Shown: positions 12,111 through 24,000 of the stretch, in pieces
Layout of the letters: each line of letters opens with the position of its first letter
Position numbering within the stretch: the stretch's first letter is position 1
Made by a program: the position numbers and the translations under genes
From: Lachnospiraceae bacterium
Lineage (GTDB): Bacteria > Bacillota > Clostridia > Lachnospirales > Lachnospiraceae
Assembly: GCA_021203205.1 (NCBI GenBank)
Contig: JAJQBQ010000044.1
Span: forward strand, 149,630 to 173,629
Direction of reading: 5' to 3'
Length of the DNA: 24,000 nt
The notes under the pieces: generated by a model
The model's database searches: none
What the model saw: the letters and a program-made list of their open reading frames with translations, nothing else
What the model was told of the DNA's origin: nothing

Positions 12111-12392
12111 ACAAAAATTCATGGAATAGGCAGGGTGGCAATCCTGCATCTCTTTTAAGACCACTTGGGCGTGACGGCTGCCTGTTCCGTCCTCAGATTC
12201 CATAAAAAAGTCTGTGCCTTACAAAGGTTTATTATACTTTTTTTGGCTGAATTGTCAACGGTTAATTTTTGTATTTTGCTTTTGCTTTTTGATTAGTTGT
12301 TTAATGCGTTAACATTGATTGACTCAGATACCAAAAGTTGATTTACGAATTATCCTGCGCTTCGCGCCATTTAATCTTATAAATATTATGAT

Positions 12393-19525: not shown

Positions 19526-19631
19526 AATATGATTTTTTTGAATATATTGATTACGTGATATTGGCGAAAATACGAGCTGACAGGATCAATTAGTTACCAT
19601 TCCTATCAGCAGATGAAGAAGCAAATTATTG

Positions 19632-19658
19632 GGGCTGACCGTAAGGTCAGTCCTTTTT
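19632..19658 (+). terminator. Rho-independent terminator
   Basis: A 9-bp stem pairs GGGCTGACC (19632-19640) with GGTCAGTCC (19645-19653), including one G-U pair, around the loop GTAA. T5 follows at 19654-19658. Confidence 0.75.
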
Positions 19659-19846
19659 ATCGGGAAAACAAGAAAAACTTCTGAACGGTTTCATAGCAAG
19701 GATTTCTGTCAGGTATCCGTATTGTTTGTGCTGGTTAAGTTGGCTACATTGAAAACCGTGTAAATAACGGCATCTCAGAGCGCTCTAATTCACCGTGCAG
19801 TATGCACTGAGTCGCCAAGCTCTACACCTTATGGCTATACAGAAAT

Positions 19847-19906
19847 AAAAAGTAGAATTTTAAATGAAAAAGTAGTTGACAATCAGGGCTCGGGGGGGGG
19901 TATAAC
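19847..19906 (+). promoter_or_regulatory. Promoter of the surface-protein genes with upstream direct repeats and a G9 tract in the spacer
   Basis: AAAAAGTAG occurs at 19847-19855 and again at 19867-19875, exactly 20 bp apart. TTGACA is at 19876-19881. The 19-bp spacer contains G9 (19892-19900). TATAAC is at 19901-19906. Confidence 0.55.
19892..19900 (+). repeat. Homopolymeric G9 tract
   Basis: I counted it directly: cggggggggg is one C followed by nine G. Confidence 0.95.
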
Positions 19907-19959
19907 ATAATTATTATAAGGCATTTATTGCCAGTTTTTTTCAAGGAGGAAAAGAAGAA

Positions 19960-21210
19960 ATGAGACAACAGAAGAAGTTATCTATGAAGGCGGCCGGAGT
20001 ACTTGTGCTGGCATGCTTTATCGCTGTTATGGCGCTTGGAACCATGACGGTGCGGGCAGACTCGTATGAGGATTGGCTGGAGGAGTATGCGACAGATGTT
20101 GACGGCACATACACCCTCACACTGGACGAGACATTAACGATTGATATTCCATCGGGAGCAGCTTTACAGTATACATTTACTCCTGAAGCAGATGGACAGT
20201 ACACATTTGATATGCAGGTGACAATCATATTTTGTGATGGTACTACAATCGATGATTATTCTATGGTCTGGGAGCGGATACCATATTATCTGGATGAAGA
20301 TGGTAAAATTTGCGCTCTTTATCCTAGCGGAGACGATGGCTCCAGCGTGTTTCTGAGCGATGATGATCTGTTTGATATGCTGGCAGGTGAGACATATTAT
20401 TTTTATTTCATTGTTGACTATGTATTTGATTATACTGAAGAGGATGCTCCCGCTCAGTCGATTATTACGGTTACTGCTACCTGCGTAGATTCAGATGATG
20501 CGACAACGACTTCAACCACAGTGGCAGATGATTCGTCATCCACTGATGCAGCAGATGATGATACAGCAGATGATGATGCAGCAGCTACGACTGCTGAGCT
20601 TGCGGCTGCAGATAAGAATGGAACTGTAATCTCGGTATATTCCAGCGAAGATGCTGCGGCAGCCGATGGCAGAACGGATGGCTATCTTGTCATTACAGCA
20701 TCGACGGAGACGGTGGATCTGACGGATGCAGACATATCCGCCATCATTGAAGCACAGATCGCCAGCGATACGGATGCGTCTGCAGACGAAATAGAAGTTC
20801 TTGAAGTAGTAGAAGTATATTATGTGGGTGATGAAAGTGCTCTGGATTTTCCGCTTACCCTTACATTTAAAGCAGACGGTGTAACGGCAGAAAATTTTGT
20901 CGGGACTCTGCACAAAGTGGATGGTGTATGGACTGCAGAAGAGGCAAGTGTTGAAACAGACGGAAGTGTGGTTGTGACAGTGAATTCTTTAAGCCCGTTT
21001 GCATTCCTTGTAAGCAGTACGGAGACAGAAGAAAATTCCACGACGGCAGAGGAGGAAGAAGGAGCAACAACTTCGGCAACTGCCACTACGGAAAGCTCAA
21101 ATCAGCAGGCGAGCAATACAGCAGACGTTTCTGTATGGGTATACCTGGTAATTCTCGCAGGCGCAGTGGTTGGTGCAGTGGTGATTGCAAAGAGGAGAGT
21201 GGAAGAATAG
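19960..21210 (+). CDS. Secreted, highly acidic surface protein with a C-terminal membrane anchor
   Basis: The RBS AGGAGG is at 19944-19949. A signal peptide (LVLACFIAVMALGTMTVRA/DS) is present. Low-complexity D/T/A/S-rich regions follow. The C-terminus reads ...SNTADVSVWVYLVILAGAVVGAVVIAKRRVEE, a TM segment with a basic tail. Confidence 0.8.
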   Translation: MRQQKKLSMKAAGVLVLACFIAVMALGTMTVRADSYEDWLEEYATDVDGTYTLTLDETLTIDIPSGAALQYTFTPEADGQYTFDMQVTIIFCDGTTIDDYSMVWERIPYYLDEDGKICALYPSGDDGSSVFLSDDDLFDMLAGETYYFYFIVDYVFDYTEEDAPAQSIITVTATCVDSDDATTTSTTVADDSSSTDAADDDTADDDAAATTAELAAADKNGTVISVYSSEDAAAADGRTDGYLVITASTETVDLTDADISAIIEAQIASDTDASADEIEVLEVVEVYYVGDESALDFPLTLTFKADGVTAENFVGTLHKVDGVWTAEEASVETDGSVVVTVNSLSPFAFLVSSTETEENSTTAEEEEGATTSATATTESSNQQASNTADVSVWVYLVILAGAVVGAVVIAKRRVEE

Positions 21211-21243: not shown

Positions 21244-21290
21244 AAAGGGAGATGGCGCTGGCACTGCGGTGCCAGAAGCGGTCTCCCTTT
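21244..21290 (+). terminator. Strong nested hairpin between the two surface-protein genes (terminator or attenuator)
   Basis: The outer stem pairs AAAGGGAGA (21244-21252) with TCTCCCTTT (21282-21290). The inner stem pairs CTGGCAC (21258-21264) with GTGCCAG (21269-21275) around the loop TGCG. The only T-run is part of the stem. Confidence 0.5.
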
Positions 21291-21345: not shown

Positions 21346-24000
21346 ATGAAACAAAACATGAAACGACTGGCCGCATTGGCGCTGGCATTGTCCATGTGCC
21401 TGTCCCTGCTGTTCAACAACGCCTGGATGGCGGAAGTCTCCGGGTACACCGAGGATGATTTTGTAGTCGAATCAACGACAGATATCGATTCGTCCGATGC
21501 AGAATCGGAGGAATACGGTGAAGTTCTCGAAGTGGAAGCGGATGCCGCCGAAGAGGAAGGCGCTGACAATATTCCTGACGATGCGCTTTCTTATAATGGC
21601 CATTACTATTACTTTTATGATGAAGCATGTACATGGTGGGATGCAAAAGAGTACTGTGAGTCAGTTGGTGGTTATCTTGTGACAATTACGACAGAAGACG
21701 AACAGAATGCCGTATATTGCTATGTAGAGGAACTCGCCGGCGATGAAGATATTTGGATTGGGATCACCGACTCAGGTACAGAAGGGGACTGGTCTACATG
21801 GATAACAGGAGAGGCCGTCACCTATACAAACTGGGGTGAAAATGAGCCTGATGATCTCGGTGGTCAGGATTATGGTGTGATTTGTACTGGATACCGAGAT
21901 GGAGGAAGTGTCTATTATATCGAACCGGCCCAATGGGATGATGTCAGTGACACAGATAATCACTTTCTTTGTGAGTGGGGTGATCTCGATGACAGCAGCG
22001 GGTCGGAGGAAGAAGATGGTCAAGATTCCAGCGCTGATTACACGTGGGTCTTTGGTCAAGATAATTTCAGCTTTTTGAACTCGAAGAAGAGTTTTGGGAG
22101 TGGAGAATATTATATCGAAGACGAAATGTTCTATTCTTATTTGGAAACCTTGACGAAAACACAAGTAATCAGAATAGCTAACGCTTATGGCGCCTATTCA
22201 TGGCTTTGGACTTATCGCAGCAAAAGAACTGTTAGATTGGAAAACTTCCTGAAGAACGAACTGGTTAATTTTGACGGTTCCTGTTACGGTATGTGCCTGG
22301 TGGCCACACTGATTAAGACAGGCAATCTTTCAGCAGAAGACCTGGGAGCCGCGACAACTTATGAACTGGGACCATTGAGCAAAGACGAAAATACCGAATT
22401 GGAATCCATCATTAATCTCTATCTAATTTCTCAGTATGTGGATACAGGCTTTGATGGTGCTGAAAAAGGAGAGGAAGATTTCGCTGAGCAAATGGAACAT
22501 ATTTGGAATGTTGCTACGACAATCGGTAGCGGGGAGCAGCCATTCCTTATGTGTTTGCATAGCGAAAGTGGTAACCATGCGGTGGTTTGTTACGGGGCAG
22601 AAACCGGTGATTTTTCCACAGGTGCTCTCTGGTGGAAGAACGAATATGATAAGCGGCTACTTATCTATAATCCTAATTCTGATAATGCAGATTATATTTA
22701 CATCAGTGAGGATTTCAGCAATGCTGAGTTGGGTAGCGATTCTGCTTATACTGGCTTTTATATCATATACGGGCTTACAGATGAAAACAATTGGAACACC
22801 TTTAGTGAATATTTGGATATTCCCCATTATGTTTATCTGGACGTGGATAATCAAAGCCTTCCAAATTATACCATCAATGCATCCGATGGCACTTATGCAA
22901 CCATTTCTAACGGTTCAGTTATAGGCGGAACTTTAGATGTGAGTATTGGCTGGGTTGCTGGAGAGTTGGCCGATGGCGAAGAAGCGGAAAATAGTTTTTA
23001 TACCGTGTGTTTACCAGATACCAGTGATTATTATACACTATCTTCTGCAGATGGAGAGTCCTTGGATGCGCTCCTGACTTATGACGATTTCTCAGTAGGT
23101 ATAAACGGAGCATTTGAGAGTGCAACAATTTACTCAAATGGAACTGTCGATATTCAAGATGGAGAAGGTGACTTGGCAGTCAACATTACTTTCAACGACA
23201 GTGATTTTGGGTATGTCAGCATTGTCGGTGAGTTAAATGGTGACGTTTTATTCCAAATCATAGATGATACCATCTACATTATTGGCGACTTGTCAAATTA
23301 TCTTGTAGAGAATATGGACAACAACTATGAGACATCTACGGTTTACGTGGAAGATGATATAGATGTTCAGGCTTTGATGGAAGATGATACAGTCGTGCTC
23401 TACGAAGATACCGACGGTGACGGAGAATATGAAACAAGTCTGCCTCATACTCATTACTATATTTACACAGATAATGGCGATGGCACTCATACCGCAACCT
23501 GCATCGGGGATGACGACAATTTCACAGAGGCACACACCTGGGACGAAGGGAATGTTACAATTGAACCTACTTGCATCGAGGAAGGCGTAATGACCTACAC
23601 TTGCTCTGTCTGCGGCGAAACCAAAACAGAGGCTATCGCAGCCACCGGCCACACTTGGGATGAAGGTGTAATGACACAGGAGTCTACCACTGAAACGGAA
23701 GGTGTGATGACCTACATCTGCACGGTATGCGGTGAGACCTGCACCGCGTTTATTGCGGCTTTGGAATTTGAGCAGGAGGGTGGTGGAGAGAATACCGGGG
23801 AGGATGCGGGTGAAACAAGCTGCTCATCTAAAACCACTTCTTCCAAAAATGAATCTTCCGAGAGCAGTCCCTCCAAGAGCGAGACATCTGTAGTCAAGAC
23901 CGGGGACAGTGCGAACCTGATTCTGTGGGAAGTGCTGGCAGGGATTGCTCTGCTGGCGATGGCCGCGATTCTGCTGACCAAACGCACGATTCAGCCGTGA
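21346..24000 (+). CDS. Secreted surface protein: C-type lectin domain + papain/C39-like cysteine-peptidase-like domain + Cys-rich HTWDEG repeats + LPXTG-like (VVKTGD) sorting signal
   Basis: The RBS GGGGAGGA lies upstream and a signal peptide is present. CTLD motifs are WIGITD, EPD, WDD and FLCEW (aa 80-211). GSCYGMC and NHAVVCYG are Cys/His candidates. There are two HTWDEG...GVMTYxCxVCGET repeats. The C-terminus reads VVKTGDSANLILWEVLAGIALLAMAAILLTKRTIQP. The stop codon falls at 23998-24000. Confidence 0.85.
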   Translation: MKQNMKRLAALALALSMCLSLLFNNAWMAEVSGYTEDDFVVESTTDIDSSDAESEEYGEVLEVEADAAEEEGADNIPDDALSYNGHYYYFYDEACTWWDAKEYCESVGGYLVTITTEDEQNAVYCYVEELAGDEDIWIGITDSGTEGDWSTWITGEAVTYTNWGENEPDDLGGQDYGVICTGYRDGGSVYYIEPAQWDDVSDTDNHFLCEWGDLDDSSGSEEEDGQDSSADYTWVFGQDNFSFLNSKKSFGSGEYYIEDEMFYSYLETLTKTQVIRIANAYGAYSWLWTYRSKRTVRLENFLKNELVNFDGSCYGMCLVATLIKTGNLSAEDLGAATTYELGPLSKDENTELESIINLYLISQYVDTGFDGAEKGEEDFAEQMEHIWNVATTIGSGEQPFLMCLHSESGNHAVVCYGAETGDFSTGALWWKNEYDKRLLIYNPNSDNADYIYISEDFSNAELGSDSAYTGFYIIYGLTDENNWNTFSEYLDIPHYVYLDVDNQSLPNYTINASDGTYATISNGSVIGGTLDVSIGWVAGELADGEEAENSFYTVCLPDTSDYYTLSSADGESLDALLTYDDFSVGINGAFESATIYSNGTVDIQDGEGDLAVNITFNDSDFGYVSIVGELNGDVLFQIIDDTIYIIGDLSNYLVENMDNNYETSTVYVEDDIDVQALMEDDTVVLYEDTDGDGEYETSLPHTHYYIYTDNGDGTHTATCIGDDDNFTEAHTWDEGNVTIEPTCIEEGVMTYTCSVCGETKTEAIAATGHTWDEGVMTQESTTETEGVMTYICTVCGETCTAFIAALEFEQEGGGENTGEDAGETSCSSKTTSSKNESSESSPSKSETSVVKTGDSANLILWEVLAGIALLAMAAILLTKRTIQP

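Follow-up and report, generated by a model that had tools for sequence, protein, structure and literature searches.

A poly-G tract in the promoter spacer of a surface-protein operon from a gut Lachnospiraceae bacterium: a candidate slippage switch

The 24,000-nucleotide stretch of Lachnospiraceae DNA analyzed here (the window) carries an uninterrupted run of nine guanines between the two hexamers of a putative promoter, and the genes that follow appear to encode surface proteins. Could this run act as an expression switch? An earlier note had proposed that it does, by changing the length of the promoter spacer. Having compared the locus with the rest of its host genome, with another assembly of this strain, and with other genomes of the family, we consider it probable that the G9 run is a slippage-driven contingency tract that sets the strength of a sigma-A promoter for the surface-protein operon. 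This reading is built on sequence comparison, and three other accounts of the tract are weighed below where the evidence touches on them.

The promoter and the operon that follows it

The promoter lies on the forward strand. Its -35 hexamer (TTGACA, 19876-19881) matches the consensus at all six positions and is followed by a 19-bp spacer (19882-19900) composed of ATCAGGGCTC and then the G9 run (19892-19900), a candidate slipped-strand (contingency) tract that directly adjoins the -10 hexamer (TATAAC, 19901-19906; five of six consensus positions). On the upstream side, an A-rich stretch that is possibly UP-element-like (19847-19875) adjoins the -35 hexamer and contains two copies of AAAAAGTAG 20 bp apart. 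On the downstream side, a ribosome-binding site read from the sequence (AAGGAGG, 19943-19949) is located 10 nt 5' of the ATG at 19960. The positions that the earlier note had assigned to both hexamers, the 19-bp spacer, the G9 run, and the AAAAAGTAG pair all proved exact when the sequence was read again. A G/C run of at least about 8 nt between recognizable -35 and -10 elements is what characterizes promoters of the porA/opc type, and this locus has one.

An intrinsic terminator of the upstream zeta-toxin-like gene (19631-19654, forward strand), with a 10-bp stem that includes six GC pairs and is followed by a T-run, closes the upstream transcript, so that the downstream operon needs a promoter of its own. 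Within the 305 bp that separate this terminator from the start codon, the TTGACA/TATAAC pair is the top candidate, with 11 of 12 consensus matches. The runner-up (10 of 12) uses the same TTGACA with a 21-bp spacer, and no candidate independent of the TTGACA at 19876-19881 scored higher than 8 of 12 in this gap. A consensus promoter scan left the 19-bp pair unreported only because it permits spacers of 16 to 18 bp. As read from these scores, the stretch from that terminator to the surface-protein operon contains no credible promoter other than TTGACA-19 bp-TATAAC, from which transcription would be predicted to start. Comparison of the leader with Rfam returned no RNA element at the gathering score.

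The two AAAAAGTAG copies (19847-19855 and 19867-19875) were confirmed by inspection and by a repeat search. The suggestion that they bind an activator found no statistical support, as the motif is not enriched (24 occurrences genome-wide, against 25 expected) and comparable repeats are common by chance: a 24-kb stretch contains about 26 exact 9-mer direct repeats with a spacing of 10 to 30 nt. More plausibly, the repeats are part of the A-rich, UP-like region.

How might tract length influence such a promoter? Ordinary TTGACA-N-TATAAT promoters of the host genome have spacers of 16 bp in 22 cases, 17 bp in 36, and 18 bp in 4, with none of 19 to 22 bp. Under the proposed mechanism, replication slippage at 19892-19900 would add or remove single guanines, and the distance between the hexamers would shift from 19 bp at G9 to 18 bp at G8 and 17 bp at G7. 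The altered spacing would in turn alter the strength of the promoter serving the operon for the 416- and 884-amino-acid proteins, with a heritable, reversible, and stochastic mix of expressing and nonexpressing cells as the outcome. Because ordinary promoters have spacers of 16 to 17 bp, the assembled G9 form, at 19 bp, is predicted from these host spacer statistics to be weak or OFF, and the G7 and G6 forms to be ON. That loss of guanines would restore an optimal spacer had been anticipated, with one or two losses thought sufficient. Shortening is indeed the direction that these statistics point to, but with an optimum of 16 to 17 bp, and 18 bp rare, two to three guanines would have to be lost.

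The first gene of the operon (19960-21210, forward strand) would encode a very acidic 416-amino-acid protein whose translation shows an N-terminal signal peptide and, at the C terminus, a hydrophobic anchor plus basic tail. This protein has no Pfam match, and a search of 5.8 billion protein clusters matched it only to itself, which makes it an orphan. The second gene (21346-24000, forward strand) would encode an 884-amino-acid surface protein with a signal peptide, Cys-rich repeats, and a C-type lectin domain (Lectin_C, 1.7e-13); its C terminus has VKTGD followed by a hydrophobic segment and a KR tail, and is thus sortase-signal-like.

Between the two genes lies a hairpin without a proper U-tail (21244-21290, forward strand; a 151-nt fold of -45.5 kcal/mol, z = -5.15). 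Its role may be that of a partial terminator, or it may serve processing or stabilize the transcript. No canonical terminator and no forward-strand promoter were called in the gap, and the two genes are therefore likely cotranscribed through the hairpin, possibly with attenuation.

The operon adjoins the edge of a defense island whose patchwork lies upstream. A skipping-rope RNA (RF02924, 59.3 bits) occupies 12123-12201 on the reverse strand in the defense-island part of the window. The GC content of the operon region, 40 to 46% in most 600-bp bins, is lower than that of the host genome (3.56 Mb, 51% GC). In this genome (G000), the window corresponds to C43:149630-173629. An orphan operon of low GC at the edge of such an island lends itself to a second reading, in which the tract is mutable but irrelevant: the promoter would be elsewhere or the operon poorly expressed, and the run would be carried along as a neutral passenger of horizontally acquired DNA. 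We regard this as quite improbable. The terminator upstream and the lack of any independent promoter candidate above 8 of 12 in the 305-bp gap argue against it, as do the distribution of G/C runs in the host genome and the recurrence of the design in the family, both described below.

Long G/C runs in the host genome and in related assemblies

If the G9 run were a contingency tract, it might be expected to belong to a larger set. We counted 2255 G/C runs of 5 nt in the host genome, 122 of 6 nt, 11 of 7 nt, 8 of 8 nt, 10 of 9 nt, and none of 10 nt or more. Extrapolated, this decay would give about one 8-nt run and about 0.1 of 9 nt, whereas 18 runs of 8 to 9 nt were observed, an excess of some 10- to 100-fold; runs of 6 to 7 nt are strongly depleted. 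The host genome thus has the excess of long over shorter G/C runs by which a phasome is recognized, and the presence of G9 in the promoter spacer is not chance. The depletion of 6- to 7-nt runs also makes a neutral G9 unexpected, contrary to the idea of a passenger tract.

The placement of the long runs is likewise that of a phasome, at the 5' ends and promoters of genes for surface structures, glycosylation, and restriction-modification. Long runs fall within the first ~60 codons of two N6/N4 DNA methylases, a TupA-like ATP-grasp protein, two hexapeptide acetyltransferases, a GT1 glycosyltransferase, and a DUF6625 protein. One lies at the ribosome-binding site of a priming sugar transferase, and others lie within or close to the promoters of large secreted proteins. 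Two sister promoters share the layout of the one studied here: TTGACA-16 bp (G8)-TACAAT at C49, preceding a protein of at least 1519 amino acids with a signal peptide, and TTGACA-19 bp (C8)-TATAAA at C33, preceding one of 843 amino acids that likewise has a signal peptide.

Several other tracts deserve mention in their own right. The N6/N4 DNA methylase genes with G9 in their first ~45 codons (G000:C61:62708-62716 and G000:C7:702-710) are candidates for phase-variable, phasevarion-like methyltransferases. A G8 run at G000:C30:58218-58225 marks the point where overlapping open reading frames of 349 and 276 amino acids meet; the latter has a LuxR/GerE helix-turn-helix, and the LuxR-type regulator gene looks as if it is currently frameshifted OFF at this tract. 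Loss of mismatch repair was considered as an explanation and rejected, given that MutS homologues are present in the host genome. With MutS present, slippage rates may be modest or moderate, and phase variation is still possible.

To look for length differences within the strain, we compared the genome with the Logan assembly of run SRR15221333, which derives from the same strain. Over 14.6 kb there were no mismatches, all 21 A/T runs of 6 to 8 nt were identical, and the differences were confined to G/C tracts. The GT1 gene has G8 in the Logan assembly and G9 in the genome, which divides a product of 355 amino acids into 70 and 248; one hexapeptide acetyltransferase gene likewise has G8 in place of G9, dividing 188 amino acids into 57 and 131.

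At promoter tracts, the Logan contigs break. Both of the promoter tracts that could be checked are break points (two of two): the tract at 19892-19900, where one contig begins at window position 19900, the last G of the run, and the tract at C33, which was reached via the divergent MFS gene. The contig at the G9 promoter opens with a single G, which simple heterogeneity among G8, G9, and G10 does not predict. The contig at C33:139505-139512 opens with G and then C10 where the genome has G8CCC, its other 1492 bases being identical; this aberrant end may be an artifact or a template-switch variant arising at a quasi-palindromic promoter tract. On the other side of the G9 promoter, a second Logan contig ends at 19527, 2 nt past the stop codon of the zeta-toxin-like gene, such that 19528-19899 is absent from both contigs.

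Two further causes of these breaks were considered. A genomic repeat was rejected, as the 461-bp region is single copy. No convincing pair of inverted repeats flanks the segment between the two breaks, and an invertible promoter (inverton) was rejected as well: the best inverted pair, of 17 nt, has 76% complementarity, and its arms do not coincide with the contig break points.

Disagreement between two assemblies at G9 tracts, breaks at promoter tracts, and a GC10 end in place of G8C3 are also what one might see if the run, or its length, had been misassembled with no biology behind it. Assembler behavior or Illumina homopolymer noise could contribute to the G9/G8 differences. As an account of the tract as a whole, we consider such an artifact most improbable: the flanks are identical in both assemblies, the placement of the tracts is nonrandom (gene 5' ends, in frame in the genome assembly, and promoter spacers), and the same design is found in dozens of independently assembled genomes.

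Tract length also differs between strains. The tract pair in the TupA-like and acetyltransferase genes, G9/G9 here, is G6/G6 or G10/G10 in related strains, and the tract at the sugar-transferase ribosome-binding site, G9 here, is G7 in a related strain. For the promoter locus itself, variable-gap pattern scans of genome and metagenome contig collections found no other copy, and its region is absent from all 40 of the relatives' genomes searched. Both proteins of the operon were likewise confined to this strain in the collections that were searched.

Poly-G promoters across the family and beyond

We next asked how widespread this promoter design is. Searching 301 genomes of the family for TTGACA-N6-14-G7-TA gave 50 occurrences, spread over 31 genomes, compared with 2 for a reversed control, a recurrence that argues against a neutral passenger. 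At 30 loci, the four -10 bases left free by the pattern made up good -10 boxes: TATAAT 10 times, TAAAAT 5 times, and TAGAAT 4 times, and position 6 was T in 27 of the 30. Products of poly-G promoters look secreted in 12 of 23 cases, compared with 18 of 99 for ordinary promoters (Fisher p = 0.002), a comparison that uses a crude heuristic on nonindependent data. Their cargo includes Big_2, dockerin, BspA-type LRR, and solute-binding proteins. G runs of at least 9 nt were present in 36 of 61 sampled family genomes, the longest being G13.

These runs end in a stereotyped manner. All ten G9 runs of the host genome precede T, six of them preceding TA, and T is the rarest base after runs of G4 to G6. 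Of 40 runs of at least G9 sampled without selection in seven other genera (L072-L111), 24 precede T and 22 precede TA. Adjacency to a -10 element explains the junction of G run and TA only partly, as several cases lie in coding regions. One possibility is that the invariable junction with T(A) reflects an undescribed constraint on slippage or on RNA polymerase.

The main rival reading is a functional G-rich spacer of 18 to 19 bp. The run would then be a fixed structural element, either a rigid, A-form-like G·C block at the -10 or a regulator site; 18 to 19 bp would be the working design, regulation would be conventional, and changes in length would be rare or incidental. The stereotyped junction (10 of 10 host G9 runs before T, 22 of 40 elsewhere before TA) is in keeping with this. 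So is the spacer mode among the poly-G promoters of the family, which is 18 to 19 bp and not 16 to 17 bp and could be functional rather than OFF. Genome G010 adds six copies of a TTGACAAAAAAATACC-G9-TAAACT promoter, five identical and one with an extra A, all six of which have G9; the copy examined drives an AMP-binding enzyme.

A fixed element is nevertheless unlikely in our judgment. Poly-G spacers in the family span 13 to 21 bp, with hexamers otherwise at consensus, and homologous or paralogous tracts differ in length. In addition to the differences among relatives given above (G6, G9, or G10 at one tract pair and G7 or G9 at another), genome G077 has paralogous copies (C2:289738 and C6:80695) with identical flanks of 32 nt and 30 nt that carry G9 and G12, each followed by TATAAA. 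Finally, like tracts in the 5' part of coding sequences, for which frame-shifting is the only sensible role, differ between two assemblies of one strain.

We return, then, to a slippage-driven tract that would set promoter strength. As first proposed, a homopolymer switch in the spacer of a surface-protein promoter, the idea fits the excess of G8-9 runs, the G9/G8 differences at sister tracts, and the recurrence of the design; what needed correcting were its details of spacer optimum and activator.

Two observations made during these searches are recorded here. A look-alike in genome G205 (TTGACATGACAGGCTC-G9-TA) was examined as a possible homolog and rejected, as its flanks and downstream proteins are unrelated; judged by these sequences, the resemblance is best described as convergent design. 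Many poly-G promoters of the family were found near contig ends (G098:C12:2-30, G101:C84:6-31, G282:C5:65-92, and G286:C31:54-79), and it seems that poly-G tracts, or the repeated genes behind them, regularly break short-read assemblies.

A broader proposal, which we put forward tentatively and would not yet call probable, is that Lachnospiraceae, and probably other gut Firmicutes, have an unrecognized Campylobacter-like poly-G phasome. It would be dominated by promoters in which TTGACA is followed by 8 to 10 A/T-rich bases and a run of G8-13 adjoining the -10, with a modal spacer of 18 to 19 bp that is 1 to 2 bp over the sigma-A optimum; surface-protein operons would be OFF by default and would be switched by loss of G.

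Comparison with known systems and implications

The closest precedents come from pathogens. Neisseria opc and fetA have poly-C promoters of the same type as that of porA. In N. meningitidis, the porA promoter has poly-G between -35 and -10 and undergoes phase variation through spacer length (van der Ende 1995, as cited in PMC5084427). Like porA, the locus described here would combine a G/C homopolymer in the sigma-70-type spacer of a surface-protein promoter with single-base slippage that changes the spacing, and, as in Neisseria, it sits within a larger contingency set that includes restriction-modification and glycosyltransferase genes. Unlike porA, it belongs to a Gram-positive-type gut commensal of the Lachnospiraceae and not to a proteobacterial pathogen; its tract directly adjoins the -10, and its assembled spacer is 2 bp over the local optimum. 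Its cargo also differs, being an orphan acidic anchored protein and a C-type-lectin protein, both predicted from sequence.

The poly-G phasome of Campylobacter jejuni (PhasomeIt, PMC6321876; reviewed in PMC8355987) offers a second parallel. As in C. jejuni, a small set of 8- to 9-nt G/C runs, with lengths that peak at 9, is concentrated in genes for surface polysaccharides, glycosylation, and methylases and also in intergenic DNA. The phylum is a different one, and a larger share of the tracts is found here in promoter spacers beside the -10. C. jejuni is not known to possess mismatch repair, whereas MutS is present in our host genome.

Two other systems match the locus in part. The sortase-dependent pilus of Bifidobacterium breve is switched by slippage in a G tract (PMC9187656); there a gut commensal uses replication slippage in a poly-G tract to turn a surface structure ON or OFF, as we propose for the locus described here. 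The B. breve tract is in coding sequence and acts by frameshift, whereas the tract described here is in a promoter spacer and would work as a transcriptional dimmer or switch. In Bordetella fim promoters, the upstream recognition element is a BvgA activator site. The fim promoters of B. pertussis carry their C-stretch 5' of the -10 (homopolymeric-tract survey, PMC1891110) and resemble our locus in that a homopolymeric tract placed just before the -10 determines how far away an upstream recognition element lies. They differ from it in that the locus described here has a consensus -35, and the activator repeats proposed for it are unsupported.

Discussion of phase variation in gut commensals has centered largely on invertible promoters, for instance those of Bacteroides and C. 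difficile. In our full-text literature searches, no account of slipped-strand switching in Lachnospiraceae was found, and a 2025 review treats Clostridia for invertible elements only. The mechanism itself is textbook material, long known in pathogens; its occurrence in Lachnospiraceae is apparently not yet described.

The G9 promoter looks like one instance of a family-wide, under-described strategy. On the practical side, poly-G tracts break short-read assemblies and produce apparent pseudogenes. Lachnospiraceae are an abundant gut family, and if their poly-G promoters do switch, single strains would be mixtures of surface-protein, capsule, and methylome variants, which would matter for colonization, for recognition by the immune system, for resistance to phages, and for how strain-level metagenomic data are interpreted.
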